Below, in pieces: positions 4,378 to 64,000 of a stretch of 64,000 bases of DNA. Below the pieces are notes generated by a model that saw only the letters and a list, made by a program, of their open reading frames with translations, made no database searches and was not told the DNA's origin. The stretch's first letter is position 1, and each line of letters opens with the position of its first letter. This stretch comes from an uncultured Ignavibacteria bacterium (GTDB lineage Bacteria; Zixibacteria; MSB-5A5; JAABVY01; JAHJOQ01), in NCBI GenBank assembly GCA_964415885.1, contig CAYQCE010000001.1:8871-72870 (forward strand), given 5' to 3'. The position numbers were made by a program, and so were the translations under genes.

Positions 4378-6081
4378 ATGTCAATGTATATACAAAGGAG
4401 ATCCGCAGTGCTGAGCATACCCAAACAGTTATTCTGCGCCTGCCTCGCGGTGTCGCTGATAGCACCGCTTGCCTTCGCCGATGATCAGACGGAAACGGCG
4501 GTCGAGGGCGAGAAGCACGAAGCTGTCTACTATCTACAAGATGGGCCGCGACAGGTGGCGTTTGATCCCGTGACCGGCGAATCGGAGCAGGTTCAGACCG
4601 AGATCATCTGGAAGCCGATCTGTTCTGGAGAAGCCCATGATCTGACGAACGCCGAGTTCCGGTCGTGGGTACGCGAGCACAATGCGGCAATGGAGATGAG
4701 ATCATATCAGCCGATAAACACGTCCGCGCCGGCTCGGGGGCTTGACGTCGTCATCCTGACCGACGGTTCAGTGCCTGCGGATGCTGTCGCAGCTCTCGTA
4801 GATGTCGAGCTGTATCTCGAGGCCACATTCGACGATCCAGTTACTGTCAGAGTGAGTATCGATTTCGATCCCAGCCTGCCCGGTGGAACACTGGGCGCAA
4901 CCGGTGTATATACCGCGAGTCCGATTGCGTGGAGCACGACCCGGGTGAGATTGACCGACGATATGGACCCGGATGATATCGTGCATGACTACCTGCCGTT
5001 CTCTTCCCTGCCGGTGCGCTACAACGGCGGCTCGACTACAGTTACGAATGAAACTCGCTGCTATTTCGCGTGGGCGAACTACGGTGCGGTCGGTTACACA
5101 ATTACCGGGCTCTCAGGCGCGATATCATTTAATCCGTCGGTGAGCTGGGACTATGACCCAAGCGATGGTGTCACGTGGAACAGGTACTGCTTCCAGTCCG
5201 TCGCAGTGCACGAGATAGGACATGCGCTCGGGTTTATCACAAGAGCGGAGGAATGGTATCAGCCGAATGAGGATGTTTTCTGCATGGATATTTTCCGATT
5301 CCAGCACACCGATGGTTCCGGTGACTACAACCCGGACGTGATAGCCGAATTTGAGACAACCCCGCGTCTTGTGGATTACAATTATCCTAACGACACACAC
5401 AATTCCAATCTGTTCAATCTCGACGGCGATGATATCGAGTGGCGCATGTCGGACGGCAGCCCGTACCAGGCGTCGCATCTGAGGCCGGGTGTCAACGGCA
5501 TAATGGTGCCGTACAGTGGGACGGGCGAAACCGACTACCCTGACTTTTTCAAGCAGGCCGATCTCGATATTTTCGATGCCATGGGCTGGGACTACTGGAC
5601 GACATTCCCGGATGCTGACGGAGACGGTATCGTGGATCGTGACGACAACTGCCCGCTTGTCAATAATCCCGGACAGGAGAACAGCGATACCGATGAATTC
5701 GGGGACAGTTGCGACAATTGCATCCATGTCGACAATCCGGAGCAGGACGATGGCGACGGCGACTCTGTCGGTGATTTGTGTGATAACTGCCCGGACGACT
5801 ACAATCCGGACCAGCTCGATTCAAACGGTAACGGTGTCGGAGATGTGTGCGATTTCGTGTGCGGAGATTGCGACCGCAGCATGGCTGTCGATATCGATGA
5901 TGTCGTGATGCTCATCGCTTACGTTTTCCAGTCCGGTACTCCACCGGATCCTGAAGAAGCGGGGGATGTCGACTGCTCGGGCGTAATCGACATTGATGAT
6001 ATCGTTTCCCTCGTGGCTTACGTGTTTTCCGACGGAAACAGTCCGTGTGATCCGGATGGCGACCTGATCCCGGATTGCTGA
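4378..6081 (+). CDS. Secreted zinc metalloprotease (HEIGHALGF zincin) with thrombospondin type-3 repeats and a C-terminal dockerin-like domain
   Basis: A signal peptide is present. An alternative GTG start at 4408 has AAAGGAG 7 nt upstream and gives MLSIPKQLFCACLAVSLIAPLAFA. The HExxH motif is SVAVHEIGHALGF. TSP3 repeats (DADGDGIVDRDDNCP..NPGQENSDTD..DNC..NPEQDDGDGD..DNCPDDYNPDQLD) lie at nt ~5605-5850. The C-terminal dockerin-like double Ca-loop reads GDCDRSMAVDIDDVVMLIAYVF / GDVDCSGVIDIDDIVSLVAYVF. Confidence 0.75.
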   Translation: MSMYIQRRSAVLSIPKQLFCACLAVSLIAPLAFADDQTETAVEGEKHEAVYYLQDGPRQVAFDPVTGESEQVQTEIIWKPICSGEAHDLTNAEFRSWVREHNAAMEMRSYQPINTSAPARGLDVVILTDGSVPADAVAALVDVELYLEATFDDPVTVRVSIDFDPSLPGGTLGATGVYTASPIAWSTTRVRLTDDMDPDDIVHDYLPFSSLPVRYNGGSTTVTNETRCYFAWANYGAVGYTITGLSGAISFNPSVSWDYDPSDGVTWNRYCFQSVAVHEIGHALGFITRAEEWYQPNEDVFCMDIFRFQHTDGSGDYNPDVIAEFETTPRLVDYNYPNDTHNSNLFNLDGDDIEWRMSDGSPYQASHLRPGVNGIMVPYSGTGETDYPDFFKQADLDIFDAMGWDYWTTFPDADGDGIVDRDDNCPLVNNPGQENSDTDEFGDSCDNCIHVDNPEQDDGDGDSVGDLCDNCPDDYNPDQLDSNGNGVGDVCDFVCGDCDRSMAVDIDDVVMLIAYVFQSGTPPDPEEAGDVDCSGVIDIDDIVSLVAYVFSDGNSPCDPDGDLIPDC

Positions 6082-6106
6082 TCGAACACAGTTCGGAGAT
6101 TGTCTG

Positions 6107-7309
6107 ATGTGGAGATTCCTGGCCGCTCTATTGCTGCTTTTCGCTCTGGTCAAGGCGAGCTCAGCCGTGATCATAGTTTCGGACGGGCCGCACAACGACT
6201 ATGAGTCGTGGATAGGGCGTATTCCCGATGGTCGTTTGATGATCCTGTTCGACAGGAATCCCGACTGGGCGTCAGGGGATATCTACTCCACCTTCTCCGA
6301 CGACGATGGCATCTCATGGTCCGAGGCTCAGATTGCTGTTTCAGGGTTTGGCGATCAGGCGACACTGAGTTATGTCGTCATGCCGGACGACACCGTTCGT
6401 CTATTCTATGCTTCGAATGAGACGGGCACATACAAAATCTATGAAGCGGTATCGTATAGCTGTACAACGTGGGCCGGAAGGGGCATGATCAATCTCGGAT
6501 GGTCCGTCGGCACGAATTGTTTCGACCCGACAGTCATTGTTGAAGCTGATGGCTCGCTGACAATGAGCTATGTTGTTGCCGGATCTGGCGTATATGTCGC
6601 TCACAAGCCGCTGAGCGGAGCGTGGGATCAGGATAAGGTCCAGCTCGCGACGTCGGCGTATCGTCCGCGCATAGCGAAGCACTCCGACGGGACATACATC
6701 TGCGTCTACCACAAACGCACCGGAACATCGTCACAGTATGATGTCTTTGCTCGAAAGTCCACAGGTTTGACGAACTGGTCGGAGCCGGAGAGGCTGACAT
6801 ACAATCAGAATTCACACGATCCTTTCGTCACAGAACTTCCGGACGGTTCGTATGCCGTATATTATGCGAAGTATGTGGCACCGGCCTATAATCTCTGCAG
6901 GAGGATGTCGTACGATGGCGAGTCGTGGGAATCGGAGGAACAAATCACCAGCGACGACGTGAACAACACTCAGCCACATCTTCTGTGCGAACCCGAGATG
7001 GCATATCTCGTGTGGGCTCATGCGGTGAGTTATCCCGATGACCACGATGTTTATCTCGAGAGATACGCATTCGAGCCGCAATACCTCTGTGGAGACTGCG
7101 ACTCATCCGACGGTGTCGATATTGACGACATCGTGCTTCTAATCGCATTCGTCTTTCAGGGAGGGACAAGCCCCGATCCCGCTGAAGCGGGGGATGTCGA
7201 CTGCTCCGCGGCCATAGATATCGATGACATAGTGTATCTCATCTCGTACGTGTTCGCCGGAGGTCCCGCTCCATGTGATCCCGGTGGTGACGGCCTTCCC
7301 GATTGCTGA
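6107..7309 (+). CDS. Secreted BNR/Asp-box beta-propeller (sialidase-like) protein with a C-terminal dockerin-like domain
   Basis: Signal peptide MWRFLAALLLLFALVKASSA. BNR motifs are SDDDGISWS, HSDGTYI and SYDGESWES. The C-terminus reads [23 protein letters not shown]...GDVDCSAAIDIDDIVYLISYVF. Confidence 0.65.
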   Translation: MWRFLAALLLLFALVKASSAVIIVSDGPHNDYESWIGRIPDGRLMILFDRNPDWASGDIYSTFSDDDGISWSEAQIAVSGFGDQATLSYVVMPDDTVRLFYASNETGTYKIYEAVSYSCTTWAGRGMINLGWSVGTNCFDPTVIVEADGSLTMSYVVAGSGVYVAHKPLSGAWDQDKVQLATSAYRPRIAKHSDGTYICVYHKRTGTSSQYDVFARKSTGLTNWSEPERLTYNQNSHDPFVTELPDGSYAVYYAKYVAPAYNLCRRMSYDGESWESEEQITSDDVNNTQPHLLCEPEMAYLVWAHAVSYPDDHDVYLERYAFEPQYLCGDCDSSDGVDIDDIVLLIAFVFQGGTSPDPAEAGDVDCSAAIDIDDIVYLISYVFAGGPAPCDPGGDGLPDC

Positions 7310-7369
7310 ATCAGGATTGACACATTCATTTCTACACCTATCATTTAATGAATAACCATAGCCGATGAG

Positions 7370-8026
7370 GTGAGCGTGGAATACTCCGAGGACGAAATCC
7401 GGTCCAGATGTGAAAGTTTCTGGAGGCGATGCTTTTCGCAGCTGGAAGGGGAGCTTCCGGAGCTGCCTGAGACCGTTCTGCATCCACTCTGTGATAGATT
7501 AATTGCACGGAATTGCCGCAGTGTGTTGGATCTTGGCTGTGGCTACGGCAGGTTTGCTCTGGCGCTTGCCAAAGAAGGATTCGATCTAACAGCTGTAGAC
7601 ATTTCGCAGGAGGCAATCGCGATTCTCGCAAGTACCGCCATTGAGCGTGGATTGCAGATTGAGACTATCACAGAATCAACAGACCGGTTCTGCAGACCCG
7701 ACTCGTTTGATGCCGTCCTGTGCGTGTCTGTGCTCGATCATATGCCGTTTGAGTGGGCAGAGCGGGCTACCCAGAACATTCGGATGAGTCTCAAGTCGAA
7801 CGGTCTGCTGTATACGACATTCGATCATGTTGATTCTGAAGAACAAACAGATGACATTGCTGAGCTATCGGATGGAACGCTCTTCCATGTCACAGGTGAG
7901 AGCGAGGGTTTGCTCTGGAGATATTTCACCGACGAAGAAATCAGATGGCTCTTCTCAAAATTCGAGCTTCAGTCCTTTGAAACCACTGAATCCGGCGCAA
8001 GGAGAATCTGGGCATCACGGGTCTGA
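7370..8026 (+). CDS. Class I SAM-dependent methyltransferase
   Basis: Motif I is VLDLGCGYGRFALALAKEGFDLTAVDIS. The ORF uses a GTG start, with a possible alternative GTG at 7376 after GAGGTG. Confidence 0.7.
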   Translation: MSVEYSEDEIRSRCESFWRRCFSQLEGELPELPETVLHPLCDRLIARNCRSVLDLGCGYGRFALALAKEGFDLTAVDISQEAIAILASTAIERGLQIETITESTDRFCRPDSFDAVLCVSVLDHMPFEWAERATQNIRMSLKSNGLLYTTFDHVDSEEQTDDIAELSDGTLFHVTGESEGLLWRYFTDEEIRWLFSKFELQSFETTESGARRIWASRV

Positions 8027-8230
8027 CGCGAGCAGAGTCTTCTAAAGAAAAATGTATCAAACAGCCTGTGTCGACGCACTTGTATAATGGCATGTTATGA
8101 GTGTGCTTAGGCGGAGGATGTGGCGAGACCGTCCGAAGAACTGCCCTTACTTCTACAGCAACAAAGTAGGTTTCAGATAATATTCGCACCAATTGAAATC
8201 GGATTTGTGGAGTGATATTCGGGAATTTGA

Positions 8231-8803: not shown

Positions 8804-8837
8804 TATTTTAGGAGGTGTTTCAGGGCACTCCAACGAG

Positions 8838-12198: not shown

Positions 12199-14076
12199 AT
12201 GAGCAGGCGGATGCGAATAGTGATTACAGTGATATGTGCGATGCTACTGGCATCGAGCGTCTTGACACGCGCAGAGACATTCTCGGGCTGCGGAGTGCTC
12301 GCACAGGGACCCGGTTGTATTGTCTTTTTCCCGCAGGTTGGGGCACCCGGACCGGGCTTTCCGATGGAAGTCAGCTCTTCAGGCGAGTTTACTGCCGGCG
12401 ACTTTGTGTACGTTGAGGGCACGATTGACTTTGACTGCCCGAGTCCATGTGACAGCTCGTTTGCCTGTCTCGATGTGGCGACGATTGATTATTGTGAGTT
12501 ACCTCCGGAAGATCGGTACTTCGAGGCGCTTGGAGTTCTAATGAGTGCCGGCGGCTCAGTTCTGTTCGCCCCTGCTGGAGACTCCCAGGCGTTTTTTGAG
12601 CTTGAGAATCTCGGAGACTACGGCGCAGGTGACACGGTACGGGTTGCTGGTATACTCTCGCCCGGCTGTCAGCCGTCGTCGCCTCTGGCACTGGCCTGTA
12701 TCCTCAATAACACGATTACTCTTGCCTACTATCCCGGCTCACCGATCAGCGGAAATGCGGTGGTGCTCGTCTCTCCGGAAGCCGACATTGACTCCGTTCT
12801 GGCGGGATACGAGGCAAACGTGCTCGACAGTATTGAAGATCGGAGGACATACCTGATCGGCTTCAGCGACTCGATCCCGACATATCAGTTCATGCACCTG
12901 CTGGCTACGAATCCTGATATCCTCATGTCCGAGCCGAACTTCGAACTGGAAGTTCCGGAGAATCTCCAGATGAGCATTTCATTTCCGGATGAGCAGGCTC
13001 CAACGCATGTACCGGGTGCCTCCCCGGAGGCGTACTACGACCAGGGTGGCGGCGATGCAGTACATATCGATTCGGCTCATCAGATCTCAACCGGTACCGG
13101 TATTCGAGTTGCTGTCATCGATAACGGCTTTGATCTCGATCATCCGCTGCTCGCCGGTTCGTTCGAGTTCGGCGGTTATGACTATCTCGATGGCGATTCC
13201 GATTTGAGCCCGGACACGGGTAGCGTATTTGGGCACGGGACTTTCGTTTGCGGCTTGATCAAGCTCGTTGCGCCGGACTGCAGCATCGTGCCTTTTCGTG
13301 CGTTTGACGGTGAGGGGATTGGTAACAGCTTCGCTATCGCGCAAGCGATATATCACGCTATTGAGGTCGACGTAGACGTCATCAACATGAGCTTCGGGAT
13401 GTATGATCCGAGCATGCTCGTCGAGGATGCCTGCTATGCCGCTCGCGCTGCCGGGATAACGCTCGTCGCGGCGGCCGGGAACGACGGTACCGCCGTGCCG
13501 GTTTTCCCCGCAGCATTGCCGGATGTCATTGCGGCCGGCGCGCTTGATACCCTCGAATATGTCGCAGACTTCTCGAATTTCGGCGGGTTCATCGATGTCT
13601 GCGCGCCCGGTGTCAGTGTGTACAGCTCTTTGACCGGCGAGTGGGACTGGGGTCACTGGAGCGGCACATCATTTTCCACACCGTTCGTCAGCGCAACCTG
13701 CGCGCTCGTTCTTGCGCATGACAACGGCCTGAACGTCGGTGAGGTTAAGGCGCTCCTCAACTCTACAGCAAGGAACGAGCTGTCGTGGGGAACGGTCGAT
13801 GTTCCTGATGCTCATTACGGATATGGTTGCGTGGATGCAGCAGCGGCTGTCAGCAGCACCGATGATCCGATATGGGTCTGCGGCGATGCTGACGGGAGCT
13901 TTTCCGTTGATGTCGATGACGTCGTATTCCTCGTTGCATATGTTTTCGATGACGGCGCCGCTCCGAATCCGCTCTTCACCGGTGATCCGAATTGCTCGAC
14001 CGCGATTGATGTAGATGACATTGTATACCTCATATCCTATGTCTTTTCCGGTGGACCTGAACCTTGCTGTCTGTAG
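12199..14076 (+). CDS. Secreted subtilisin-like serine protease (S8) with an N-terminal Cys-rich repeat pair and a C-terminal dockerin-like domain
   Basis: The ATG at 12199 is preceded by GAGGTGATAG and followed by signal peptide MSRRMRIVITVICAMLLASSVLTRAET. Catalytic-triad contexts are VAVIDNGFDLDHP (Asp), HGTFVCG (His) and GTSFSTPFVSA (Ser). The C-terminus reads CGDADGSFSVDVDDVVFLVAYVF...GDPNCSTAIDVDDIVYLISYVF. Confidence 0.85.
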   Translation: MSRRMRIVITVICAMLLASSVLTRAETFSGCGVLAQGPGCIVFFPQVGAPGPGFPMEVSSSGEFTAGDFVYVEGTIDFDCPSPCDSSFACLDVATIDYCELPPEDRYFEALGVLMSAGGSVLFAPAGDSQAFFELENLGDYGAGDTVRVAGILSPGCQPSSPLALACILNNTITLAYYPGSPISGNAVVLVSPEADIDSVLAGYEANVLDSIEDRRTYLIGFSDSIPTYQFMHLLATNPDILMSEPNFELEVPENLQMSISFPDEQAPTHVPGASPEAYYDQGGGDAVHIDSAHQISTGTGIRVAVIDNGFDLDHPLLAGSFEFGGYDYLDGDSDLSPDTGSVFGHGTFVCGLIKLVAPDCSIVPFRAFDGEGIGNSFAIAQAIYHAIEVDVDVINMSFGMYDPSMLVEDACYAARAAGITLVAAAGNDGTAVPVFPAALPDVIAAGALDTLEYVADFSNFGGFIDVCAPGVSVYSSLTGEWDWGHWSGTSFSTPFVSATCALVLAHDNGLNVGEVKALLNSTARNELSWGTVDVPDAHYGYGCVDAAAAVSSTDDPIWVCGDADGSFSVDVDDVVFLVAYVFDDGAAPNPLFTGDPNCSTAIDVDDIVYLISYVFSGGPEPCCL

Positions 14077-14266: not shown

Positions 14267-15838
14267 ATGGGAATGAGAAAGTTTGCATTGCTGACTATCT
14301 GTTTCTGTCTCGTGTTATCGTCCATGCTCATTGGCGAAGATGGCAGCATCCTGCGTGACTCTAAAGAACCTCACTATGAGTGGGCACGTGATGGGTCCGA
14401 GATGGACGTTGACGTTTCGGGCTCTCTGGGTGGATATGCTATAGAGTTCTCGACCGCGCTTTTCGGATTTAGCGGCAGCGAGCCGTCGGGTAATCCGAGG
14501 AGCACTGATTGTGTTGAGGTAGACATCGAGCTTCCCGATACGGTGGGGCCGGGTCCAGGTGCAGGATGGGGGCCGCCATTGGCGGAAGGTCATTTCGAGC
14601 TTCTGAATTGCGGGGATGCACCAGCAGAGATACACCTCACACTGGCGCTGACCATCATTGTTGACCATGTCGCCGATACGACTGTCATCTCACCCGATTT
14701 CACGGTGTATCTCGGGGCGGGAGAATCGATCAGTCATGACTTCCTGATCCCGGTGCCGCCATTTGACGGCGTTTATACCGCGTGCGTTTCGGCGGTCGCC
14801 GGTGAAGCGGAGATGACCGACTGTGCTACCATGGTTGTAAATGGAATCGAGTTCCCCGGAGTGCCGTTCAGCGCTCCGGGTATTCTCGTTCAGGGCACGA
14901 ACTGTGTGCTGTTCGCTCCGCACGGCAACCCGGAGATCACCTTTGAACTCGAGCATTATGGGAGTTTTCAGGTCGGCGACGAGGTCTTCGTCTCCGGTAT
15001 GCTCTTCTGGGATTGTGATACTGACTGTGTGGATGCAGATGGTTGCGTGTTAGACAACACGATTGGTGATTTCGAAGTGCCGGACATCCCGTTCGAGGCG
15101 TGCGGTGTCCTGATTCAGGGAGTCGAATGCATCCTGCTCGAAACTCTGGAGCCGTATCCGTACGGTATGTTTGTGGTGGAGAATCTCGGGCAGTACTCCG
15201 TAAGTGATACTGTATTCGTTGCGGGCACTCTACTGCAGGATTGTCCGTCTATTTGTATGGAAGGGACCGGTTGCATTGTAGAGAACGTAATCGAACCGTG
15301 CCCGGGCGATCCCGGCGATGGCATCCCCGTTCAGGGATGCGGTGTACTGGTCGCTGATTCAGGTTGTGTGCTGTTCGCACCGACCGTTGGTATTCTTGGC
15401 ATGCCGGATGGCGGGGTGCTCCTCGAAAACTACGGTGGTTTTGGAGTTTGGGATACCGTATTTGTCGACGGCGTTTTCCAGCCCGGTTTCCAGCCGGGTT
15501 GCCCGTCCGCGCCTGGTATCATCGAAGAGAACACGATCGGAGTCTGCGATGGTGCTTTCTCGGGACATCCGAACAGACTCGAGATTCAGAACTACCCGAA
15601 CCCGTTCAATCCGTCCACAACTATAGCGCTTACGCTTCCGTATGAGACAGTAGTCAAGGTCACGATTTACAACATCGTGGGCCAGGTTGTTACAACTCTG
15701 GTTGACGATGTGTTAAGTGTCGGGACACATGAGTTTGTCTGGAACAGCTCCAACGCTGGCGTGGCGAGTGGAATGTACTTCTACAGAGCACAGGCCGGCG
15801 ATATCGATGTGACCAGGAAGATGCTGCTTGTGAAATAG
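14267..15838 (+). CDS. Secreted protein with three ~65-aa Cys-rich repeats and a T9SS (Por) C-terminal sorting domain
   Basis: Signal peptide present. An alternative ATG at 14273 follows GGGAGGG. The C-terminal ~85 aa (LEIQNYPNPFNPSTTIALTLPYETVVKVTIYNIVGQVVTTLVDD...GTHEFVWNSSNAGVASGMYFYRAQAGD) matches the T9SS type-A CTD pattern. Confidence 0.75.
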   Translation: MGMRKFALLTICFCLVLSSMLIGEDGSILRDSKEPHYEWARDGSEMDVDVSGSLGGYAIEFSTALFGFSGSEPSGNPRSTDCVEVDIELPDTVGPGPGAGWGPPLAEGHFELLNCGDAPAEIHLTLALTIIVDHVADTTVISPDFTVYLGAGESISHDFLIPVPPFDGVYTACVSAVAGEAEMTDCATMVVNGIEFPGVPFSAPGILVQGTNCVLFAPHGNPEITFELEHYGSFQVGDEVFVSGMLFWDCDTDCVDADGCVLDNTIGDFEVPDIPFEACGVLIQGVECILLETLEPYPYGMFVVENLGQYSVSDTVFVAGTLLQDCPSICMEGTGCIVENVIEPCPGDPGDGIPVQGCGVLVADSGCVLFAPTVGILGMPDGGVLLENYGGFGVWDTVFVDGVFQPGFQPGCPSAPGIIEENTIGVCDGAFSGHPNRLEIQNYPNPFNPSTTIALTLPYETVVKVTIYNIVGQVVTTLVDDVLSVGTHEFVWNSSNAGVASGMYFYRAQAGDIDVTRKMLLVK

Positions 15839-46516: not shown

Positions 46517-49500
46517 TCAGTCGCAATCCGCGCAAGGATCTGCTCCACCCTGGAAGACATGCTCGATAATGTATACGACATCATCGATATCTACCGAGTC
46601 GGAACAGTTGACATCACCGGACTCAGGCGGCACCGGATCAGCACCACCCTGGAAGACATACTGGATGACGTAGACGATATCGTCAATGTCGACACCTTCG
46701 CTTTCATCAACGTCGCCGCACACAAACGTCTCGATAACGAATGACATCGTATCAGAGCCGCAGAAGTCATGAGCGGCTACCGAGATTGTCTCAGTCGATC
46801 TGGCATCCGGTACAGTACCGGTTACCGTGTCATTCTGGACTGTCGACCAGGCGGGAACGCTCAGGAACTCCAGTGTGATCTCGGTGTCGTCCGGATCGGT
46901 TACAACCGGTACAAACATGAGCTCCGAACCGTTATACATTGCTTCGTCGTCCACCTCTGCTATCGACGGCGGTACGTTCGAGTGGTCAATGTCAATTGTA
47001 ACGAGTAGCGTATCATTGAGCGAACCATCGCTGACAATGACCGTAAAGAGCGTATCTTCGTGATCACAGCCCGCTGTTCCAGTCACCGTAACATCTGTGA
47101 GAGAACACCAGCTTGGCAGATTCTCAACGGAGAATGTGAGTTCGGTGCCGTCACAGTTGTTGTCGTTGGCGGTAGCTGTGTAGCTGAATTCCTCACCGGG
47201 CTCGAGTCCAATGTAAGATTCAGAGGATATAGTCGGAGCCTGGTTGTGGAACTGCGGATCACAGCAATCATCTTCCGGATGATCAGGACAATCGTCGCAA
47301 ACATCGCCTGCACCGTCCTCATCCGAATCGAGCTGGTCTTCATTCGGAGTAGTCGGGCAGTTGTCTTCGTCGCAGGTGTTGGCCGCGTAACCCGGATTTC
47401 CATAGCCGTCGCCATCGGTGTCTGTGCATTCGTCACATACGTCTCCGATGCCGTCACCGTCGGCATCCGCCTGATCCTCGTTCGCGATTGACGGGCAGTT
47501 GTCCTCATCACAGTTGTTGGCTGTGTATCCGGGATCGCCGTATCCGTCACCGTCGGTGTCTGTGCAGTGATCGCATGCGTCTCCGATACCGTCGCCATCG
47601 GCGTCAGCCTGATCTGCATTCTCGACGTTCGGGCAGTTGTCGGTATCACATGTGTTATGCGGGAAGCCCGGATCACCGAATCCGTCACCGTCAGAATCCG
47701 TGCAGACGTCGCACGAATCGCCTATGCCGTCGGAATCGGCATCTTCCTGGTTCGGATTGTAGACATCCGGACACACATCACAGAGATTACCGATACCGTC
47801 AGCGTCAGTGTCTTCCTGCTCCGGATTAGAGACGATCGGGCAGTTGTCGAGAATGTCGATGATACCGTCGCCATCCGTGTCAGTCTGGTCGTCACACTCA
47901 TACAGATTGACCGTGAAACCGTCGACGCCGGATTCGTTGATTGACTGAGGATCGCCGTCATTGGCTGTGAATCTGACGCGCATATCGGAAGTCATCGTTA
48001 CGCCTGCGGCGGATAGCGCAGCGGCGTCAATCTCGTGAAATCTCCATAGGAGACCGCCGTCGGTGTTGTGATTCGCAATCTGAGTCCACGGTCCGGAGAG
48101 GCCGTTGCTGCTGATCTCAACGAGCAGCTTGTCGGTCCCGTCCGTGTTTGTCAGTCTCAGGAAATAGTAGTACGAAATCGAGGCGATTCCGTTCGCCATA
48201 TCCAATGTTGGTGAGATGAGAGTCACCGAGCCATTGTCAACATCAGTGTTACCGGATGTGTTCTCAGTGAGGAAACACTGTCCGCTTCCATCGCCGTCTG
48301 ATGCGGGATCATAGTCCCAGCTCCCGTCGTTGACCGGTGTTCCTCTCTGCCAGTATCCGCTTGTTGCGCCGCTGTAGGAGGTTGTCCAGCCCTGATCGCT
48401 TTCGAAGTTGTCGTCGATGACATTTGTGAAGCTGGTGGCAACAATAGTCGTGAACGCCGATGAAGGCGCATCAGCCGGATCGGATACAGTGCCGAATCCG
48501 CTCGCTTCGGCGGTGACGTACCATGAGATCACGCTCTCGCAATCGGCTGCCGGAAGGATAGCATCGTAGTGATCCGGCGAGGTTTCGGTCATGGTCCCGG
48601 ATACGTACGGCGCTCCATCGATCGAGTAGAAGAGCTGTCCGCTACCCGGCGTGGGAGCGACGGCGTTATCATTTATGACAACCTCGACCGTTGTGGTCTG
48701 GTTCGGCATCACTGTCTGAGGTCTGCCATTCGGATACTCGAACAGAATCGGGCTCAGCTCGGGACAGTCCATGTTGTGGGCGCCGAAGCCGGCACAGATT
48801 TCAGGATAATGCGGCGTGCCGTTGTCAAGGTTGGCGTCGTCATCATCGAGAGTCAGCCAGTCGATCGTGATCTGCGGTGTAATGGATGTACCCGTGTGAA
48901 GCAGTATCGAGTTGATCGATAGATCGGCCAGGATTGTAATATAATTCGGGTAGTTTCCGATGAGCTCGTTGCGCGTGCTCCAGACACATCCGGAGTAGAG
49001 CTGGCCGCAGTAGTGAATTGCGCCGGAGCAGGGGTACTGGAACGTGTTATCCGCATTTCTCAAAGCCTCGGAGCAACTGCCGTAGAAACCCAGACCGAGC
49101 TCTGGTGAATCCGATAGCAATAGCGACATGATATCGCTGGTACCCTCACCATACTCGCCCTGTCCGCTGCCGCCTACATTGACGAGGTGGTGGCCATATT
49201 CGTGATGAATCACGCTCGACCACGCCGTGTTGGGATGTCCGCTTCCTTCCTGACAGAAGTTGATGGAAACATCGCCGGGATCATACCACGCGTTGCCGGG
49301 GCAGTAGAAATCGTTCCTGTTCACATATACCGGGAAGTTAGACTGGGTGGATACCTGCGGATAGCTCGGGTTGACCTCAATCACAAGGTCGCGAATCTCG
49401 TTTGGTTCAATGTAGCCGTTGACCTGAGCACGAATGAGCGGGTCGGTGTTTGCGGTGTTGTGCTGGAAATCTGCAGGTCCCGGAGGCGTGACAATGCTGC

Positions 49501-50488
49501 TCAAGCCAACATCGCTTCCAGCGTAGTTATAGACATTGAAGTACTGCCCCTTCAGGACAGACTCGACCGTCACCTGGCCGGTTCCGCCATTCGAGATCGT
49601 GTAGTTGCCGTTTTCGTCGGTGTATGCGGTGGTTGCACCGATGCTTACTTTGGCGTAAGGGATCGGCGTATCGATCTCGTCCTCACAATGCTCGGCCCCA
49701 TGACCCTCGGTACCGAGACCCGATACATGGCCCGACACATCCTCGAAGATTATTCTGTCTTCGCTATACAGGATTTCACCGGTCTGAGCATCCGATACGA
49801 ACAGCCACTGTTCGCCGTTGTCACCGTAACCCACAAACTCCAGGGCGAGGCGGGGCTGTTCGGCTTCAACTCCGTCGTAGCCGGCCCAGACTTTAGTTGT
49901 CGGGTCGGTGAACCGCGTCATCTCAGGCATTTCGAGGCGTACAACCCGCTTGGCCGTTTCGAAGTCAGTCGCGAATCGATCCGGCACTCTGAAATCGCCG
50001 ACATCCCACATCGATGACACGGCGAGTACGAGCGGATAGCTCGGCTCGTTGCGCACGAGGAGCCTGAGTTCCGATCTGAAGACCGGGACGTTGTCGACGT
50101 ACTGACGGTAATAGACTAAAGTGAACTTGTAGCTGTCCTTCAGCCTGTCGTACATTAGCTGTTGCGTGCGGCGCTTGTCAGGCATCCTGCTCTCCGGAAC
50201 GAGCTGAGCGCTCTTCGCTCCGACCACAGCGGAGTGTCTCTGGACGAAACCTTCCGCCGATGCCTCCGGGCTCGATCCGAACGAGAACGGCGCGCCGTAG
50301 ATTCGCGTAACCTTGCCAATATCATCGTAGACCTTGATATTGGGGAACTCGCCGCGCAGACCCTGCAAAGCTGTCCGCGCTCGATCCTGCTTTCCGGACA
50401 TCTCCTCCTGTCCGAAAACTGTCGAGATGGACACCAGGAGCAGGACGGCAAGTACAGTAATCACCGTAAGATTTAGCACTCTCCTCAC
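46517..50488 (-). CDS. Large secreted zinc metalloprotease (HEYGHH, M6/immune-inhibitor-A-like) with ~8 thrombospondin type-3 repeats, Ig/cadherin-like domains and a C-terminal dockerin-like domain
   Basis: 1323 aa. Signal peptide [27 protein letters not shown]. HExxH context [18 protein letters not shown] long run of TSP3 motifs ([55 protein letters not shown]...) follows. The C-terminus reads [23 protein letters not shown]...[22 protein letters not shown]. Confidence 0.75.
47300..47890 (-). repeat. Intragenic tandem repeats encoding calcium-binding thrombospondin type-3 motifs
   Basis: Repetitive nucleotide blocks (gatgccgatggcgacggtatcgg..., tgtgcagacgtcgcacga...) encode reiterated DxDxDGxGDxCDxC..NxxQxDxD units inside the 46517-50488 CDS. 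They are coding repeats, not CRISPR. Confidence 0.8.
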
Positions 50489-54831: not shown

Positions 54832-57800
54832 TCAGCAGTCGGGGATTGAATCGCCATCCGGGTCGCAGGGGGCATCACCTCCCTGGAAGACATATGTTAT
54901 GAGATAGACGATATCATCGATGTCGACGCCCCCGGAGCAGTTGACGTCGCCGGACTCGACGGGATTTGGTGCCGGACCTCCCTGGAAGACATAGGCTATC
55001 GTATACACGATATCATCGATATCGACCGAGTTGGAGCCGTTTACATCGCCGCAGAACGTGGCAATGAAGATATCTGCGCCGATCGTGCCGTGGCTGTAAC
55101 CTATGGCGATATCATCCATTACGGTTGATCTCGTGAAGCGCAGGTGCGCCTCACCGACAGCATCGAGCACATAAAACTCCAGCCCGATTATTGCTCCCGG
55201 TCCGGCAAATGTGCCGTTCAGGACTCCAAAGTCAACGAGAATTGAGTCGCTCGGAAAGACCGAGGCGATAAGCATCGTGTTGTCCAGATGATCCGGATGC
55301 AGGAACACCTGTTGCGCCTGGAGCAACGTCTCATCGTACGTTATCTTGAAGGCTCCGGCCTCGACCGGATCGAAATCGTCGCTCAAATTGATCCAGAGTG
55401 TGCAGACCTGGGTCGGGTTCGCGTCGATGTAAGCCGGGTTGAGCGTGACGATTGCCGCTCGGTCACCGGCGCCTGTCCCGGTACCTGTCTTTTCCTTTGT
55501 GCCGCTCATGAACGGCGGCTGTTCTCCGGCGTAGGCGCCATCAAGACCGTAGTTGATGCAGATCACAGCCAGGTCTTCGATGTCGATACGGTTATCCGTT
55601 TGCGGAATACCTGTAGAGACTTCTCCGATTACAGGACCGATGTCTGCCTCGGCATTGTACGATGCATCTCCGTCGAGTGTCCGGTAAGCTGAGCTCAGCA
55701 CCAGTGTATCGCCTGCATCGACAATCCCGCTATAATCGAGATCACCGACAAGATAGCTGGTTGCGAGGATGGTGTCACTCACAGAGAGCGGAGAGTAGTT
55801 TCCGGCCGAATCGAACGCGAAAATGCTGTAGAAGAATGCGTTGCGATCCTGAGACGAGAGGTCATCGAAGTGATACTGTCCGTTGGCGCGGTACACGAAC
55901 CAGCCCTCGGTGTGTGTTAATGGGAATCCGGGCGGGTCCGGAATAAAGTCATCGAATTCGGGGTACGCGCCGACTCCCCAGGAATTCCGTCGGATTTCGA
56001 TACCACGGAAGGAGTTGTCACCTGTCGGGTTCTGCCAGCTCAGGAGGCAGGCGTCGTGCTTGGGTGTCACAGCGAAGCTCGATGGGGATTCGGGTGGGAC
56101 GGTGTCGTAGATGAACCAGTATGCAACGTCACAGTAACCCGTGCATTCGTTGCCGGCGTCATCGACGACCTTCAGGTATACCTCGTGCAAGCCCTGGCTT
56201 ATCCCGCCGGGTAGCTGGAGCGAAATCGTTGTATCGGTAGTGCTCGAATTATAGCTCCATATATCCATCCATGTGCCTTCACAGCCGTCAAGCTGATAGT
56301 ATGCTCGGTCGATTCCCAGATTGTCCGAAATCGAGATGTTCAGTATTGGTAGCGTCTTGAGATGCGATCCCGGAGACGGTGACTGAACGACCGCGTCATC
56401 CGGCGGAGTTACATCGTAGGTAAACTCCCAGACAGGTTGGCACGAATCGGAACGGGCATTTCCCGCGTCATCTGTAACGCGGAAGTAGACTGAGTGGGAA
56501 CCCTCGGATGGTGTGGGCAGCGACAACACTACGCCCGTGTCGTTCTGTGCGCAGTCACCAACCCACAGATCGATCCAGCTATCGCAGCCATCGACCTGAT
56601 AGCCTGCTGAGTACAGTCCGAAGTTGTCCGACAGACTCACATCGAGGGCGGGGACCGAATTCCAGGCCAGTCCGGACGGTGGCGAGGTCACTATCGGGGC
56701 GTTCGGCGCAGCGATGTCGTATGTAAATGTCCAGTAGCTCGAACACGAGTCACCGTTCGATTTGCCGAAGTCATCGCTGACTTTGAAGTACACGCTGTGT
56801 GTTCCTTCGGATGGCGACGGCAGCGAAATGCTCGCGCTTGTGTCGGTTACGCCTGAGTCGTAGTTCCATATCTCCGTCCAGTCGTCACTGCAGTTGTCCA
56901 CAGCGTAGTAACCGCGATCGATTCCTCGATCGTCGGAAAATTCCACATCGACTGACGGCGCATAATTAACGGGCGTGGATGGTTCCGGCGTCAATACGGT
57001 ATATGCGGGATCAAACCCATCATCACAGTAGTTCAGGCCGCCGTCTCCATACATGTAGTGATACTCGATCTCATCTTCGGTCAGCGCGCGGTCATAAATA
57101 GCCAGTTCATCAAGGTCGCCGTCGTACCGGAAGAACGTGCTGAAGGGTAGATGACCTATGTTCATCGGGACTACATCGTCAAAGCCTGCTGTGTACGTAT
57201 ACGATTGCGAACCGTCGAGCTCGCCATCCACATATAGAAGATTGATTCCCTGCATGCCGTCTCGAACGGCTACAACATGATGCCAGACACCGTCCATCAC
57301 ATCCGTTCCACCTACAATTTGAACTCCGGATGAACCGCCATCACGGAGCACATACCGAATTCCGCCCTGACCGAGAGCCTGGTCACAGTTGACGCCGACC
57401 CACCAGATGTTCAGGTTGCCGGAGCCTCCGCCTCTGCGGCCGATGATAACGTTGTTGAAGCTGCTTGTAGTTCCGGTACAGCCGGAAGTTTTGCGCATCC
57501 AGAATTCGATACTGAAGCTGGCATTCGGCCCCCAATCGAACGTGTCGTCGTCTGCAACGAGGACTTCGTCGTCCGTACCGTCGAAGTACTGCGCATTACC
57601 AACCTTACCGGTCGCTGGAGTCGGGCAGTCGTTCGAGCATGTCGCGGTTGTAGTGTCCCAGTAGTCCGCGTAAAGACCCGGACTTGCCTCATCGAGCTTC
57701 CAGTAGTGAGTAATCCCTTCGAGGCAGAGAGGGATATCGGTTACTTCGAGCGTGAACGGCTGCTGGTCCGATCCGCCGGAGTTTGTGGCCTCGACCTCTA

Positions 57801-58803
57801 CGCTATAAGATCCGGTTCCGGTCGGAGTCCACTCGATCATGCCCGTGACGGGATCGATCGTCATACCCGCTGGGTAAGTCGTCAAGCTGTACGTCGGCGC
57901 CGGTGTACCCGTCGCATCCACATCATACGTGTAGAGGCGGTCTTCCCGGATGCTGGTTGTCGGTGAAGTAACGATCTGCGGTGGTGTCACGGTTGAGCAG
58001 TAGCCGCTTCCGAGGTTGATCCCATCATTGTAGTGCGCTTCGATCTCAGTTAACTCGAGCGCGCGATTGTAGACGGCCAGTTCGTCCACGTCACCATCCA
58101 GATAATAGCCTCCGCTAAGATTGAGATACCCGACAGTGATTGCGGACGATGACGCGAACCCGTACGAGTATGCCGGCACGGCAACGGCGCTGTCGAGCTG
58201 CCCGTCAATGTAGACGAGGATTTGCCCGAGGCTGTTGTCCCGGACTGCGGCAATGTGATGCCAGTCCCCATCGGTTACGGAGACATTCGTGATAACCTGA
58301 TCGCCTCCACCGTCATCTTTCAGAACGAAGCGAATAGCGCCTTGCGGACCCTGTGAGCCGCTGCAGTTCACTCCGACCCACCAGAGATTCAGGTTGTTTC
58401 CTCCGGAGCCGTCATAACGACCTGCTACGATATTGTTGTAGTCATTCGCATTTCCGGTACATGTGGAGGACTTCCTGATCCAGAACTCAATTGTGAAATC
58501 CTGGTCGGCTGCCCAATCGAAAGTTGAGCTTGCCGGAATATCGATTTCGTTGCTGCCGTTAAACCGCTGAGCGCCGCTTACTATACCCGTAACTGCCATT
58601 GGGCATGAGCTCGGACACGACGCATCCAAAGTGTCATAAAAGTCGACATACGTCGGACCTCCGGATTCGTCGAGTTTCCAATAGTGAAGCATCGAATCAG
58701 GGCAGCCTTGTGAGAAGGCAGTGCCACAGACAGTGACAAGCAGTAGCAATGTGACTATTGGAAAGACGACACCAAGCCTCTCTGCCAATCTGAATTTCAA
58801 CAT
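54832..58803 (-). CDS. Large secreted multi-domain protein: two LamG-like (Laminin_G_3) domains, an Ig-like domain, four tandem ~100-aa repeats, a candidate internal dockerin-loop plus cohesin-like module, and a C-terminal dockerin-like domain
   Basis: 1323 aa. Signal peptide MLKFRLAERLGVVFPIVTLLLLVTVCGTAFS. LamG motifs are DGDWHHIAAVRDNSLGQILVYIDGQLD and DGVWHHVVAVRDGMQGINLLYVDGELD. Four repeats have the form YxxDGC..W..W...S..LP.PSEGxHSVYF.V.DDxGN. The internal segment is VGDLDYSGIVDAGDTLVLSSAY. The C-terminus reads [23 protein letters not shown]...[22 protein letters not shown]. Confidence 0.7.
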   Translation of the reverse strand: MLKFRLAERLGVVFPIVTLLLLVTVCGTAFSQGCPDSMLHYWKLDESGGPTYVDFYDTLDASCPSSCPMAVTGIVSGAQRFNGSNEIDIPASSTFDWAADQDFTIEFWIRKSSTCTGNANDYNNIVAGRYDGSGGNNLNLWWVGVNCSGSQGPQGAIRFVLKDDGGGDQVITNVSVTDGDWHHIAAVRDNSLGQILVYIDGQLDSAVAVPAYSYGFASSSAITVGYLNLSGGYYLDGDVDELAVYNRALELTEIEAHYNDGINLGSGYCSTVTPPQIVTSPTTSIREDRLYTYDVDATGTPAPTYSLTTYPAGMTIDPVTGMIEWTPTGTGSYSVEVEATNSGGSDQQPFTLEVTDIPLCLEGITHYWKLDEASPGLYADYWDTTTATCSNDCPTPATGKVGNAQYFDGTDDEVLVADDDTFDWGPNASFSIEFWMRKTSGCTGTTSSFNNVIIGRRGGGSGNLNIWWVGVNCDQALGQGGIRYVLRDGGSSGVQIVGGTDVMDGVWHHVVAVRDGMQGINLLYVDGELDGSQSYTYTAGFDDVVPMNIGHLPFSTFFRYDGDLDELAIYDRALTEDEIEYHYMYGDGGLNYCDDGFDPAYTVLTPEPSTPVNYAPSVDVEFSDDRGIDRGYYAVDNCSDDWTEIWNYDSGVTDTSASISLPSPSEGTHSVYFKVSDDFGKSNGDSCSSYWTFTYDIAAPNAPIVTSPPSGLAWNSVPALDVSLSDNFGLYSAGYQVDGCDSWIDLWVGDCAQNDTGVVLSLPTPSEGSHSVYFRVTDDAGNARSDSCQPVWEFTYDVTPPDDAVVQSPSPGSHLKTLPILNISISDNLGIDRAYYQLDGCEGTWMDIWSYNSSTTDTTISLQLPGGISQGLHEVYLKVVDDAGNECTGYCDVAYWFIYDTVPPESPSSFAVTPKHDACLLSWQNPTGDNSFRGIEIRRNSWGVGAYPEFDDFIPDPPGFPLTHTEGWFVYRANGQYHFDDLSSQDRNAFFYSIFAFDSAGNYSPLSVSDTILATSYLVGDLDYSGIVDAGDTLVLSSAYRTLDGDASYNAEADIGPVIGEVSTGIPQTDNRIDIEDLAVICINYGLDGAYAGEQPPFMSGTKEKTGTGTGAGDRAAIVTLNPAYIDANPTQVCTLWINLSDDFDPVEAGAFKITYDETLLQAQQVFLHPDHLDNTMLIASVFPSDSILVDFGVLNGTFAGPGAIIGLEFYVLDAVGEAHLRFTRSTVMDDIAIGYSHGTIGADIFIATFCGDVNGSNSVDIDDIVYTIAYVFQGGPAPNPVESGDVNCSGGVDIDDIVYLITYVFQGGDAPCDPDGDSIPDC

Positions 58804-58866: not shown

Positions 58867-61449
58867 CTATTCACAATCAGCGCACGGCACCGGGCCGCCC
58901 GCAAAGATGTAAGCAACTAGGTATACGACGTCATCGATGTCTGTTGAGTCGCTGCAGTCGACATCACCTACAGAAAGCGGATTCGGCGGTGCTCCTCCGG
59001 CGAAGACATAGGCGATTAGAAACACGATGTCATCGATGTCGATCCCACCGCTTCCGTCGACATCCCCGCAGAAATAGCAGTAGCCGTGTCCGGCCAGACC
59101 GTTCGCATAGTGATTCTCTATCTTGGCCTCATCGAGAGCGCGATCGTACAGCGCGAGTTCATCCAGCGCGCCGTTCAGACGGAAATGGTCACCGAATCCG
59201 AGATAGCCTATATTTATCTCCGCGAGATCATCAAAACCTTCGGTATAGTTGTATGAGATGCTACCCGCGAGATCTCCATCGATGTAGAGCTTATTCAGGG
59301 AGTTCTTATCGTCTCGCATTGCGACTACGTGGTGCCAACCAGTGCCTACTATGCTCTGGCTGCTGACAATCATTGTGCCGCTGTCTCCGTTGTCGCGGAG
59401 AACAAACCGAATTCCACCCTGCGTACCCTCCGATGAGTTGCAGTTGACGCCTACCCACCAGATATTGAGCCCGCCTGTTCCCGAGCCGTAGCGTCCGACA
59501 ATAACGTTGTTCTCCGCATTGGTATTGCCGGTACAGTCGGTGTTTTTGTAAATCCAAAATTCGATTGAGAAGCTCTGGTCAGGACCCCAGTCGAAGGTGT
59601 TGTCGTCTGCAATATCCGCCTCGGTCGATCCGTTGAACTCCTGAGCAAGCCCGGACACACCCGCGGTTGAGACAGGACAGGAGGCGCAGAACATGCTGTT
59701 CCCTCCGATTTCGTCCGAATACATCGGGCCAGCCTGTTCATTGAGCATCCAGTAGTGAGACATTCCCTCCGGGCATGGTGGTGGCTCGTAGACTTCGATC
59801 TGGAAGAACTGCTCGTCCGATCCCGCGACATTCGTTGCCGACACGGTTACGTCCATTACTCCGCTGCTCGACGGCTGCCACTCGACTAGTCCGGTAACCG
59901 TATCTATGCTCATCCCCGCTGGTCCGGAGACGAGCGCGAAGACTGGATCAGGATCGCCGTCAGCCTGCACGTTGTAGATATAGTTTTGGCCAAGACCGAT
60001 GGACGTGATCGGAGCGGATACGATATACGGCGCCGATGATCCGGCGCAGTATGGATTGCCGTTCAGGCCGCTGGCGACATGACCAGTGATTTCATGTGCG
60101 TTCAATGCGCGGGAGTAAAGCGCGATTTCGTCGATTGTGCCCGGGAAGTTGCAGCACATTGGGTCAGGCCCGGAAGCTGCAACGTAAATCCCGGATGTAT
60201 CCGCGAATCCGGAGGAAAAGACCGCGCTGGAGCTGTCTTCGAGTGCACCGTCCACATAGAGCAAGACTGAGTCTGTGGTATGATCCCGCGTTGCCGCGAT
60301 GTGGTGCCAATCGCCATCGGCAATGTCAGACACTCCGACGAGATCGACTGTCGTTCCGAGGTCGGAAAGTTGAAACGCAGCAACTCCACTCTGCATGGAC
60401 TCCTTACCGACGAGCCGCAGTTGCCACGAGACAGGAGACAGGCCGTGTCCACCCCTACCTATGATCACGTGGTATGGGTCGATCAGGCCATCGAGCGAGA
60501 TACTATCGACTTTCACCCACGATTCGATTGTGAATGATTGGTCCGCTCCCCATTCGTATGTGTCATCGTCCTCGAAATAGATCAGCGTTTCGCTGCCGAA
60601 ATACTGAGCGGATTCTACCACGCCTCCAACAGGACTTGGACAGTCGACACATTCGCCGTCCAAACCGCCCCACGAATCGATATAGACGTCGCCGTCCGTC
60701 TCATCGAGCTTCCAGTAGTGCGATATTTCTTCAGGACACGCAGTGTAGGGGAGAATATCGTTCAAGTGATTGAACCATACCGCAGCCATCTTGTCATAGC
60801 CTGACTGATTCGGATGCACATTGTCAATCAGATCATCCGGGTAAGTCAGAGCCGTGTCCATATGCACGACAACGAGATCATCACCTTCGCCGATGCGGTC
60901 GAGGACCAGGGCCTCCACGGAGTCGTTATAAGCAATGGTCGTCGAATTATTTCCGTCCGCCCGCAGGATTATGCGTGCTGCGAGAACGGTCACAGGTGTG
61001 GTATAGTCGGCCTCGAACTGATCGATGTTATCGAGAAGCTGATCGACTTCGGAGACATCCACGTGATTGTGGGATACATCATTGGTGCCGATGTGCAGCA
61101 GCACGTAGTCTGCTGGATTGAGAACGAGCCATCCATAGATATTGTCACGTATCTCATCCGCCTCCCATCCTCCGTGGCCTTCATGATCTCTGTCGAAATC
61201 ATCCACGAGACCGTGAAACTGAGTTCCGACGAAATCTACGTCATAGCCCGCATCGGTAAGCGCGAGAAACAACGCCCGTCGATAACCAATATCGAGATCG
61301 CTGCCGGCAGTCCCCTTGGTGATGGAGTTTCCAAGGGGCATAATCCTGATTTCGTCATTAGCAGCGGCTGATGTAACGATCATTAGTACAAGAGTGATTG
61401 TAATTGCCCCAATTCGCATCCAGTTTTCGTTCGAGGCTGTTCTTTTCAT
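58867..61449 (-). CDS. Secreted SGNH/GDSL-family hydrolase fused to three LamG-like domains and a C-terminal dockerin-like domain
   Basis: The likely start ATG at 61449 follows GGGGAG and gives MKRTASNENWMRIGAITITLVLMIVTSAAA. The GDSL block is IRIMPLGNSITKG. Three W-HH(I/V)AA.RD...LY(V/I)DG LamG motifs follow. The C-terminus reads CGDVDGSGGIDIDDIVFLIAYVF...GDVDCSDSTDIDDVVYLVAYIF. Confidence 0.7.
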   Translation of the reverse strand: MKRTASNENWMRIGAITITLVLMIVTSAAANDEIRIMPLGNSITKGTAGSDLDIGYRRALFLALTDAGYDVDFVGTQFHGLVDDFDRDHEGHGGWEADEIRDNIYGWLVLNPADYVLLHIGTNDVSHNHVDVSEVDQLLDNIDQFEADYTTPVTVLAARIILRADGNNSTTIAYNDSVEALVLDRIGEGDDLVVVHMDTALTYPDDLIDNVHPNQSGYDKMAAVWFNHLNDILPYTACPEEISHYWKLDETDGDVYIDSWGGLDGECVDCPSPVGGVVESAQYFGSETLIYFEDDDTYEWGADQSFTIESWVKVDSISLDGLIDPYHVIIGRGGHGLSPVSWQLRLVGKESMQSGVAAFQLSDLGTTVDLVGVSDIADGDWHHIAATRDHTTDSVLLYVDGALEDSSSAVFSSGFADTSGIYVAASGPDPMCCNFPGTIDEIALYSRALNAHEITGHVASGLNGNPYCAGSSAPYIVSAPITSIGLGQNYIYNVQADGDPDPVFALVSGPAGMSIDTVTGLVEWQPSSSGVMDVTVSATNVAGSDEQFFQIEVYEPPPCPEGMSHYWMLNEQAGPMYSDEIGGNSMFCASCPVSTAGVSGLAQEFNGSTEADIADDNTFDWGPDQSFSIEFWIYKNTDCTGNTNAENNVIVGRYGSGTGGLNIWWVGVNCNSSEGTQGGIRFVLRDNGDSGTMIVSSQSIVGTGWHHVVAMRDDKNSLNKLYIDGDLAGSISYNYTEGFDDLAEINIGYLGFGDHFRLNGALDELALYDRALDEAKIENHYANGLAGHGYCYFCGDVDGSGGIDIDDIVFLIAYVFAGGAPPNPLSVGDVDCSDSTDIDDVVYLVAYIFAGGPVPCADCE

Positions 61450-61581
61450 TTCCGGTGTCTCCCCAGGTTGCTGTTCTCGCGACTGCGCAACGTATCGGCG
61501 CCGGACGAGGGATGCTGGTCCGGCACCGACCTGTTTATTCATATGTATCCGGATCGATAGCCCGCTTACAGGCAATCGTGT

Positions 61582-64000
61582 CTATTTCGTGCATCCGGCA
61601 CACGGAGCGTCTCCACCCTGAAAGACATAGGTGATGAGATAGACGATATCGTCGATATCGATACCCTCGCTGCAGTCGACATCGCCTGTCGCCTCCGAGA
61701 CGGGTGCCGGTCCTCCGGCAAAGACATAGGCAATCAGGTAGACGATATCATCGATATCTATACCGGCGCTGCCATCGACGTCACCACAAAGATAGCAATA
61801 CCCGAGTCCACTCAAACCGCTCAAATAGTGGCTCTCTATCTCACCGTCATCCAGTGCGCGATCGTGAACCGCGAGCTCATCAAGGTGACCGTCGAAGTTG
61901 AAATGCTCGGCAAAACCGATGTAGCCGAGGTTTATCGGCACAGTGTCGTCGAAGCCGTCAACGAACGCCAGATTCTCGGAAACTGCCAGCTCTCCGTCTA
62001 CATAGATCATGTTTTCGTTCGTGGTGCCGTTTCTAACCGCGGCGACATGATGCCATCCAGTTCCGATCAGGCTTTCACTGCTGACAATCATGAGTCCGGT
62101 GGTTGCCTTCTCTCTGAGAACAAAACGAACGCTGCCCTGCTCTCCGGTCGATGTGTTGCAATTCAGACCGACCCACCAGATATCCAGATTGCCGGTTCCT
62201 CCGTCGCTCTTCCGACCAATAATCACATTGTTTTCGGAGTTTGTATTCCCATCGCATTCCGTGTCCTTCTTGACCCAGAACTCGATTGTGAAGCTCGACG
62301 TATTCGTCCAGTCGAAGTGCATATGATCCGCAATGTCGAGTTCGTGAGTGCCGTCAAACTGCTGACACCCGTTCACCATACCTGTACCAGCCACGGGGTA
62401 GTTCATGCCGGTGGCGTTTGCCGATCCGATAAAGTCGTGGTAGTTCGGGCCATCGGCCTCATCAAAGGTCCAGTAGTGTACCAGATTCGCCGGGCAGAGA
62501 GGAGCGCCGGTTACGGTAATCGTGAATGGCTGTTCATCCGATCCGACTGAGTTCGCTGCTTCGACGATGACATCGTAATCGCCGGCGAACTCGGCTGTCC
62601 AGGCAATCACTCCGGTAGTCGGATCGATGCTCATTCCGGCAGGAGCCTGAATCAGATCGAAAGTTGGAGTCGGGATCCCGGATGCCTCGACATCATAGGA
62701 GTACGACATTCCAACAGTTGCTTCAGTAAGGGCGATGGAGGTTATGACGGGCGCCACATTGTCACAGTACGATATTCCCTGCAAACCATTAGTATAGTGA
62801 GCCGTCACATCACCGAGCGTAAGCGCACGATCGTACATCGCGACTTCATCAAGATCGCCCTCGTAGCGGTAGAAACCTCCGAATCCGAGGTAGCCAATGT
62901 TGAGAGCGGCATCGTCTGAGAAGCCGGTCGTGTAAGCTACAGTAGTCGATATTTCGAGTTCCCCGTCAATGTAAAGGAGGTTCTCTCCAGTGACGGCATC
63001 TCTAACCACGGCAATGTGATGCCACTCACCATCAACAATGCTCTCATCGCTCAGGATCATCGTGCCCTGACCACCCGAGTCCCTTAGGACGAAGCGAACT
63101 GAGCCTGGAAGACCGTCCGACTGATTGCAGTTTACGCCAATCCACCAGATGTTAAGCGGGTTTTCGCCGGTGCCATACCTGCCAACGATGACCTCATTGT
63201 ATTGACTGCCCTGGGTGCCAGCACAGTCGGCGCTCTTTCGCATCCAGAATTCGACGCTGAAGCTCTCGGTGGGACCCCAGTCAAATGATCCATCATCGGC
63301 TATATCACCCTGGTCGTCGGTGCCGTCAAACTGCTGGGCGCCGTCAACGATGCCAGCCAGCGGAGTCGGGCAGTTTGTGCAACTGATATCGTTACCGCCG
63401 ATGAAGTCATCGTACGGTCCGGACGTCTGCTCGTCGAGTTTCCAGTAGTGCGACATTTCGTCCGGACACGCTATCTCTTCGAGAATTGAAAGCGTATAGG
63501 ATTGCTGATCAGTACCTGATGCATTGGTGACTTCGACAGCAACATCGTAGTCATCAGCGGTGTCAGGAGTCCATTCGATCAGGCCGGTTACCGGATCGAT
63601 CGTCATTCCGACCGGAGCGGTCGTTAGAGCAAATGCCGGAGCGGGATATCCGTCGGCCTCGACATCATACATGTATTCTTCACCCGCACGCCCAACTGTC
63701 ACTGCAGTCGATGTGATTTCGGGTGTTTCGTTGCAGTAGCCGTGTCCGTCATTAATCCCACGTTCGTAGTGGTCCATGATGTCCGAATCGCTCAGGGCCA
63801 CGTCGTGCAGAGCCAATTCATCGAGCAGACCGGTATAGTAGAAGCCGCCGGTACCTGTGTTGAGATAGCCGACATTGATGTTGTCGTCTGCGGCGAATCC
63901 ACTTGCGAACGTTACCGCTGTGGCAGTGGCCTCAAGAGAGCCATCGACATAGAGGTGCACGGATGAAGTCGCGAAGTCATGGACCGCGGCGACATGATGC
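61582..64000 (-). CDS. Secreted protein with at least four LamG-like domains, Ig-like domains and a C-terminal dockerin-like domain; the N-terminus lies beyond the window end
   Basis: The open frame continues through 64000: manual translation upstream of 63960 gives ...HHVAAVHDFATSS, another LamG motif. The C-terminus reads CGDVDGSAGIDIDDIVYLIAYVF...GDVDCSEGIDIDDIVYLITYVF. Confidence 0.7.
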   Translation of the reverse strand, partial: HHVAAVHDFATSSVHLYVDGSLEATATAVTFASGFAADDNINVGYLNTGTGGFYYTGLLDELALHDVALSDSDIMDHYERGINDGHGYCNETPEITSTAVTVGRAGEEYMYDVEADGYPAPAFALTTAPVGMTIDPVTGLIEWTPDTADDYDVAVEVTNASGTDQQSYTLSILEEIACPDEMSHYWKLDEQTSGPYDDFIGGNDISCTNCPTPLAGIVDGAQQFDGTDDQGDIADDGSFDWGPTESFSVEFWMRKSADCAGTQGSQYNEVIVGRYGTGENPLNIWWIGVNCNQSDGLPGSVRFVLRDSGGQGTMILSDESIVDGEWHHIAVVRDAVTGENLLYIDGELEISTTVAYTTGFSDDAALNIGYLGFGGFYRYEGDLDEVAMYDRALTLGDVTAHYTNGLQGISYCDNVAPVITSIALTEATVGMSYSYDVEASGIPTPTFDLIQAPAGMSIDPTTGVIAWTAEFAGDYDVIVEAANSVGSDEQPFTITVTGAPLCPANLVHYWTFDEADGPNYHDFIGSANATGMNYPVAGTGMVNGCQQFDGTHELDIADHMHFDWTNTSSFTIEFWVKKDTECDGNTNSENNVIIGRKSDGGTGNLDIWWVGLNCNTSTGEQGSVRFVLREKATTGLMIVSSESLIGTGWHHVAAVRNGTTNENMIYVDGELAVSENLAFVDGFDDTVPINLGYIGFAEHFNFDGHLDELAVHDRALDDGEIESHYLSGLSGLGYCYLCGDVDGSAGIDIDDIVYLIAYVFAGGPAPVSEATGDVDCSEGIDIDDIVYLITYVFQGGDAPCAGCTK

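Follow-up and report, generated by a model that had tools for sequence, protein, structure and literature searches.

Cohesins are the modules into which dockerins plug. In the clostridial type I pairs (C. thermocellum Xyn10B dockerin with CipA cohesin 2, 1OHZ/2CCL; OlpC cohesin with Doc435, 4DH2), dockerins with near-symmetric halves and a duplicated 12-residue Ca loop plus helix sit at the C terminus of secreted enzymes, and the hosts are Gram-positive bacteria with SLH or sortase anchors. Uses other than cellulose breakdown are represented by isolated pairs in Gram-positive toxins (C. perfringens NagJ cohesin/NagH dockerin, 2OZN/2JH2) and in archaea (Archaeoglobus fulgidus cohesin, 2XDH). 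In the diderm FCB group, a cellulosome-like complex was predicted for the Cloacimonadota member “Ca. Stygibacter” by Williams et al. 2021 (PMC8542988). In that system, signal-peptide enzymes, including S8 and C25 peptidases, carry C-terminal dockerins, a cohesin protein with a T9SS-type C-terminal domain was proposed as the cell surface anchor, and the complex was proposed to degrade both polypeptides and polysaccharides. Dockerin-bearing peptidases have also been reported from rumen metagenomes (PMC6487960).

The 64,000 nucleotides analyzed here (the window) belong to an uncultured bacterium of the FCB group, in all likelihood a member of the Zixibacteria, and in our judgment likely encode part of a cohesin-dockerin protein assembly system. 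Given that one of its dockerin proteins also carries a cohesin, this bacterium probably assembles a noncellulolytic, cellulosome-style protein complex. The original prediction had called such a system unusual for a non-Firmicute, a claim weakened by the rumen peptidases (PMC6487960) and by the 2021 prediction of a comparable system in Cloacimonadota (PMC8542988). All homologues of the window's module with a named organism come from Zixibacteria and thus from a different phylum than “Ca. Stygibacter.”

All seven proteins named in the original prediction share a C-terminal module of 66 to 76 amino acids with two Ca-loop/helix repeats and four Cys (module coordinates include the stop codon). Three are encoded on the forward strand: a secreted Zn-metallopeptidase-like protein with a TSP3 repeat (4378..6081, module 5860-6081), a secreted BNR_2 propeller protein (6107..7309, BNR_2 43 bits, module 7088-7309), and a secreted S8 subtilase (12199..14076, Peptidase_S8 137 bits, module 13879-14076 with the tail PCCL). 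The reverse strand encodes a secreted metallopeptidase-like protein of 1323 amino acids whose TSP3 repeats form a long array (46517..50488, module 46517-46720), a secreted adaptor-like protein (54832..58803, module 54832-55053), a secreted SGNH/GDSL esterase with LamG and He_PIG domains (58867..61449, module 58867-59070), and a LamG/He_PIG protein (61582..64000, module 61582-61788). The last gene had been given as a LamG protein at the window's edge; its dockerin and LamG assignments hold, but the gene extends beyond the window and on the source contig encodes a complete protein of 991 amino acids with a signal peptide. Signal-peptide-like N-terminal hydrophobic stretches were found in six dockerin proteins, as called by eye and a simple hydrophobic-run test rather than a predictor. 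The label “metzincin-like” for the first protein is based on its HEIGH motif and on a Pfam match to Peptidase_M10 that stays below threshold (19.4 bits against a cutoff of 24). The HEYGH motif and TSP3 repeats of the “M6-like” protease at 46517..50488 were found, while the Pfam scan of this protein did not recover the M6 family.

The similarity of the seven C termini is far beyond chance. A six-frame translation of the window contains the motif D[IV][DN]D[IV]V 15 times, compared to 0.011 expected from amino acid frequencies; 14 copies come from the seven modules, one from each half, and the 15th is one of these read in antisense. A further tail of the type CDPDGDxxPDC follows in three copies (4378, where it reads CDPDGDLIPDC, 6107, and 54832), in agreement with the CDPDGDxIPDC tail described before.

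The original interpretation of this module as a dockerin is supported by profile and structure comparisons, and we conclude that it is a true, type-I-like dockerin. Pfam Dockerin_1 aligns over its full length (profile positions 2 to 56 of 57) with six of the seven modules, although the gathering score is passed by one copy only (54832-55053); the others score 21.6 (4378), 15.7 (6107), 19.8 (46517), 16.6 (58867), and 16.4 bits (61582). Dockerin_1 was not reported for the copy in the S8 protein, which scores 114 bits with an HMM built from the window's own dockerins. When searched against PDB sequences, the family profile matched almost exclusively solved dockerins, with top E values of 7e-6 to 1e-3. 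The AF2 model of the module reached a pLDDT of 94.2, and its top ∼32 Foldseek matches were all dockerins (TM 0.64 to 0.77). Neither the NCBIfam sorting-signal models nor Por_Secre_tail matched it. Like the clostridial type I dockerins, the window's modules have D/N at loop positions 1, 3, 9, and 12 and near-symmetric halves, which would make a dual binding mode possible. Unlike them, they carry four conserved Cys and the optional TSP3-like tail, as well as Ser at loop position 5 and an invariant I/V-D at positions 10 and 11, where C. thermocellum has S-T. This four-Cys subtype is not mentioned in the accessible portions of the “Ca. Stygibacter” account (PMC8542988).

The four Cys are among the invariant residues of the window's modules, and they covary in a larger set of 190 modules. 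The full set of four is present in 140; C4 is missing from 27 and C42 from 10, in both groups with a single tail Cys, and 2 have neither C4 nor C42 and no tail Cys. This covariation implies two disulfides that would link the C-terminal tail with the N terminus of the module and with loop 2. Disulfides of this kind could arise only outside the cytoplasm.

Over the 63-aa core of the modules, the pairwise amino acid identity is 54 to 78% (mean, 65%) and the nucleotide identity 63%. At the third codon positions of conserved residues, identity is no more than 46%; the seven copies are thus old paralogues under selection rather than recent duplications. The module is strongly conserved even though its cargo is unrelated, and all modules of a contig have genome-specific residues in common: among the 14 half-repeats of the window, 13 have Val at position 20, compared to ∼10% elsewhere, and on one other contig (L081) DISD is found in 7/7. 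With synonymous sites nevertheless saturated, this pattern fits a coevolution of the modules of one genome with a common partner.

A candidate partner, which the first reading of the sequence had missed, lies within the adaptor-like protein itself (54832..58803, reverse strand). These 1323 amino acids comprise two LamG domains, He_PIG, Ig-like repeats, an FN3-like domain, an internal dockerin, a cohesin, and the C-terminal dockerin. The cohesin (55054..55467, residues ∼1113 to 1250) had no Pfam match of its own; its AF2 model (pLDDT 95.5), however, found only cohesins among the top 50 PDB matches of Foldseek (E value of 3e-10, TM 0.85 to 0.87), including 2xdh and 2jh2, and shares the jelly-roll fold of the clostridial type I cohesins (TM 0.8 to 0.87). 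The top 11 PDB matches of its family profile (A5) were also all cohesins, the best being that of C. perfringens NagJ (E value of 9e-4). A phmmer search of 1.84 billion representatives yielded 29 relatives; in 5 of the 10 scanned, Pfam Cohesin scored on the matched regions (e.g., P0124, 1.5e-33; P0128, 4.6e-21; P0137, 1.4e-82), and some relatives have three to nine tandem Pfam cohesins plus a dockerin, such as the one with nine Cohesin stretches and a Dockerin_1 match. Taken together, fold and homology identify the modeled segment as a type-I-like cohesin. The internal dockerin is divergent (55543..55755, reverse strand, residues ∼1017 to 1087), and Pfam found nothing in this segment. Its profile (A6) nevertheless retrieved only dockerins from the PDB below an E value of 0.6 (best, 2y3n_B at 7e-7), and the cassette is conserved in 14 relatives, so that by sequence comparison the segment is best described as a second dockerin.

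Cohesin and dockerin in one polypeptide are also found in adaptor scaffoldins and X-dockerin dyads (A. cellulolyticus ScaB, C. thermocellum CipA X-Doc, and R. flavefaciens ScaA/ScaB), making a hierarchical assembly possible. As in the dyads, a beta-sandwich immediately precedes the C-terminal dockerin, with almost no linker, and in the PDB the internal dockerin is matched best by dockerins of the type II and X-Doc kinds (2y3n_B and 2b59_B). In contrast to the dyads, the beta-sandwich is here itself a cohesin homologue with predicted binding, and the protein additionally has large LamG/Ig arrays. The window cohesin could instead have a structural, X-module-like role.

A second cohesin-like family (A3) forms the N terminus of an eighth dockerin protein, a beta-helix protein encoded by the next gene on the contig, adjoining the window's right end. 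The top seven PDB matches of the A3 profile were all cohesins (best, 1.8e-5), pointing to a cohesin-like domain, and in related metagenome loci A3 occurs in a dockerin-X-dockerin arrangement. At least eight dockerins thus lie within about 68 kb, unlike the isolated NagJ/NagH and Archaeoglobus pairs, and in a T9SS context.

That the organism uses a T9SS, as previously proposed, is indicated by one secreted protein with a T9SS C-terminal sorting domain (14267..15838, forward strand, Por_Secre_tail 30.2 bits), in which the profiles used detected no cohesin. Among relatives of the cohesin protein, some have a four-Cys dockerin at the C terminus (P0121, P0125, and P0131) and others a T9SS C-terminal domain (CTD; P0130, P0135, P0136, P0140, P0142, P0143, P0148, and P0149), suggesting anchoring at the outer membrane via T9SS-CTD cohesin proteins. 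P0152 shares the C-terminal cassette of the adaptor-like protein: it combines two cohesins and the adaptor-like protein's type of internal dockerin with a Por_Secre_tail at the position of the window protein's C-terminal dockerin, and a dockerin protein is encoded 2.7 kb away.

We therefore propose a model in which at least eight putatively Sec-exported proteins ending in disulfide-stapled dockerins, each with two loop-helix units whose Ca2+ loops are EF-hand-like, would bind Ca2+ dependently to cohesins of the same locus, namely, the type-I-like one in the adaptor-like protein and the A3-type one in the eighth protein. Because some proteins carry both modules, they could serve as adaptors and link the cargo into chains or networks. 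Since homologues of the cohesin protein from elsewhere have a T9SS CTD in place of the dockerin, the assembly would likely be rooted in an outer membrane cohesin protein anchored via the T9SS. Several observations count against an assembly: one cohesin faces seven C-terminal dockerins within the window, neither a multicohesin scaffoldin, as in clostridial systems, nor a cohesin protein with an anchoring domain was seen in the window or the organism's available sequence, and the T9SS-CTD cohesin relatives carry no taxonomic assignment. In the predicted “Ca. Stygibacter” complex, tandem cohesins and CBMs are gathered on a single 3,755-aa scaffoldin (PMC8542988), whereas here single cohesins lie inside dockerin-bearing proteins (doc-coh-doc). 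Moreover, the window's dockerin proteins have no T9SS CTD that would take them across the outer membrane, and they could remain periplasmic.

The imbalance between dockerins and cohesins would be expected if the dockerin fold were real but served as an autonomous, Ca2+-binding, disulfide-stabilized C-terminal domain that binds a nonprotein ligand, such as LPS, capsule, or substrate glycan, or simply stabilizes the exported protein, with the cohesin-like domains as ordinary beta-sandwich spacers. The direct, X-module-like fusion of the cohesin to its dockerin and the transitive or structural evidence needed to detect it point the same way, and to our knowledge many organisms have dockerin-like modules whose partner was never identified. 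We nevertheless regard this explanation as rather unlikely, as homologues of the cohesins turn up repeatedly and specifically in proteins and loci with dockerins, relatives combine tandem Pfam cohesins with a dockerin, and the lineage-specific surface residues are what a shared protein partner would produce. A module read mainly as a secretion or sorting signal by an outer membrane translocation or attachment machinery, like the T9SS CTD, would also account for its conservation over unrelated cargo that has no other known outer membrane export tag, and for its C-terminal position, within two amino acids of the stop codon in 99 of 121 complete matches to the window-derived HMM. Por_Secre_tail (PF18962) is likewise a C-terminal tag on secreted hydrolases and adhesins of the FCB group, and homologous proteins have one or the other at the same position. 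However, Por_Secre_tail is an Ig-like beta-sandwich and the window's module a three-helix Ca-binding dockerin matching no known sorting-signal model, one relative (L118) carries both a four-Cys dockerin and a T9SS CTD, which means that one does not substitute for the other as a signal, and dockerins sit internally in L118 and in doc-coh-doc proteins, making a mere sorting signal improbable. Recent duplication or gene conversion, low-complexity sequence, or assembly chimerism might be suspected from the Asp-rich, internally repetitive modules, but such an artifact has next to no probability: it is refuted by hundreds of homologues from many metagenomes, by the occurrence of the same proteins on independent assemblies, and by the low nucleotide and third-position identities, and the models are confident and well folded.

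With the assembly reading thus preferred, the cargo would point to protein and glycan scavenging and adhesion rather than cellulose breakdown. As the original prediction had noted, and unlike in clostridial systems, domain matches in the window indicate peptidases (two Zn-peptidase-like proteins and one S8), a propeller, an esterase, and lectin- or adhesin-like LamG/Ig-rich proteins, not cellulases. In 65 related proteins, no glycoside hydrolase is among the 25 most frequent families listed, and TSP3 (19/65), FG-GAP_3 (8/65), peptidase families C10, M28, M14, and S8, and beta-helix domains are found.

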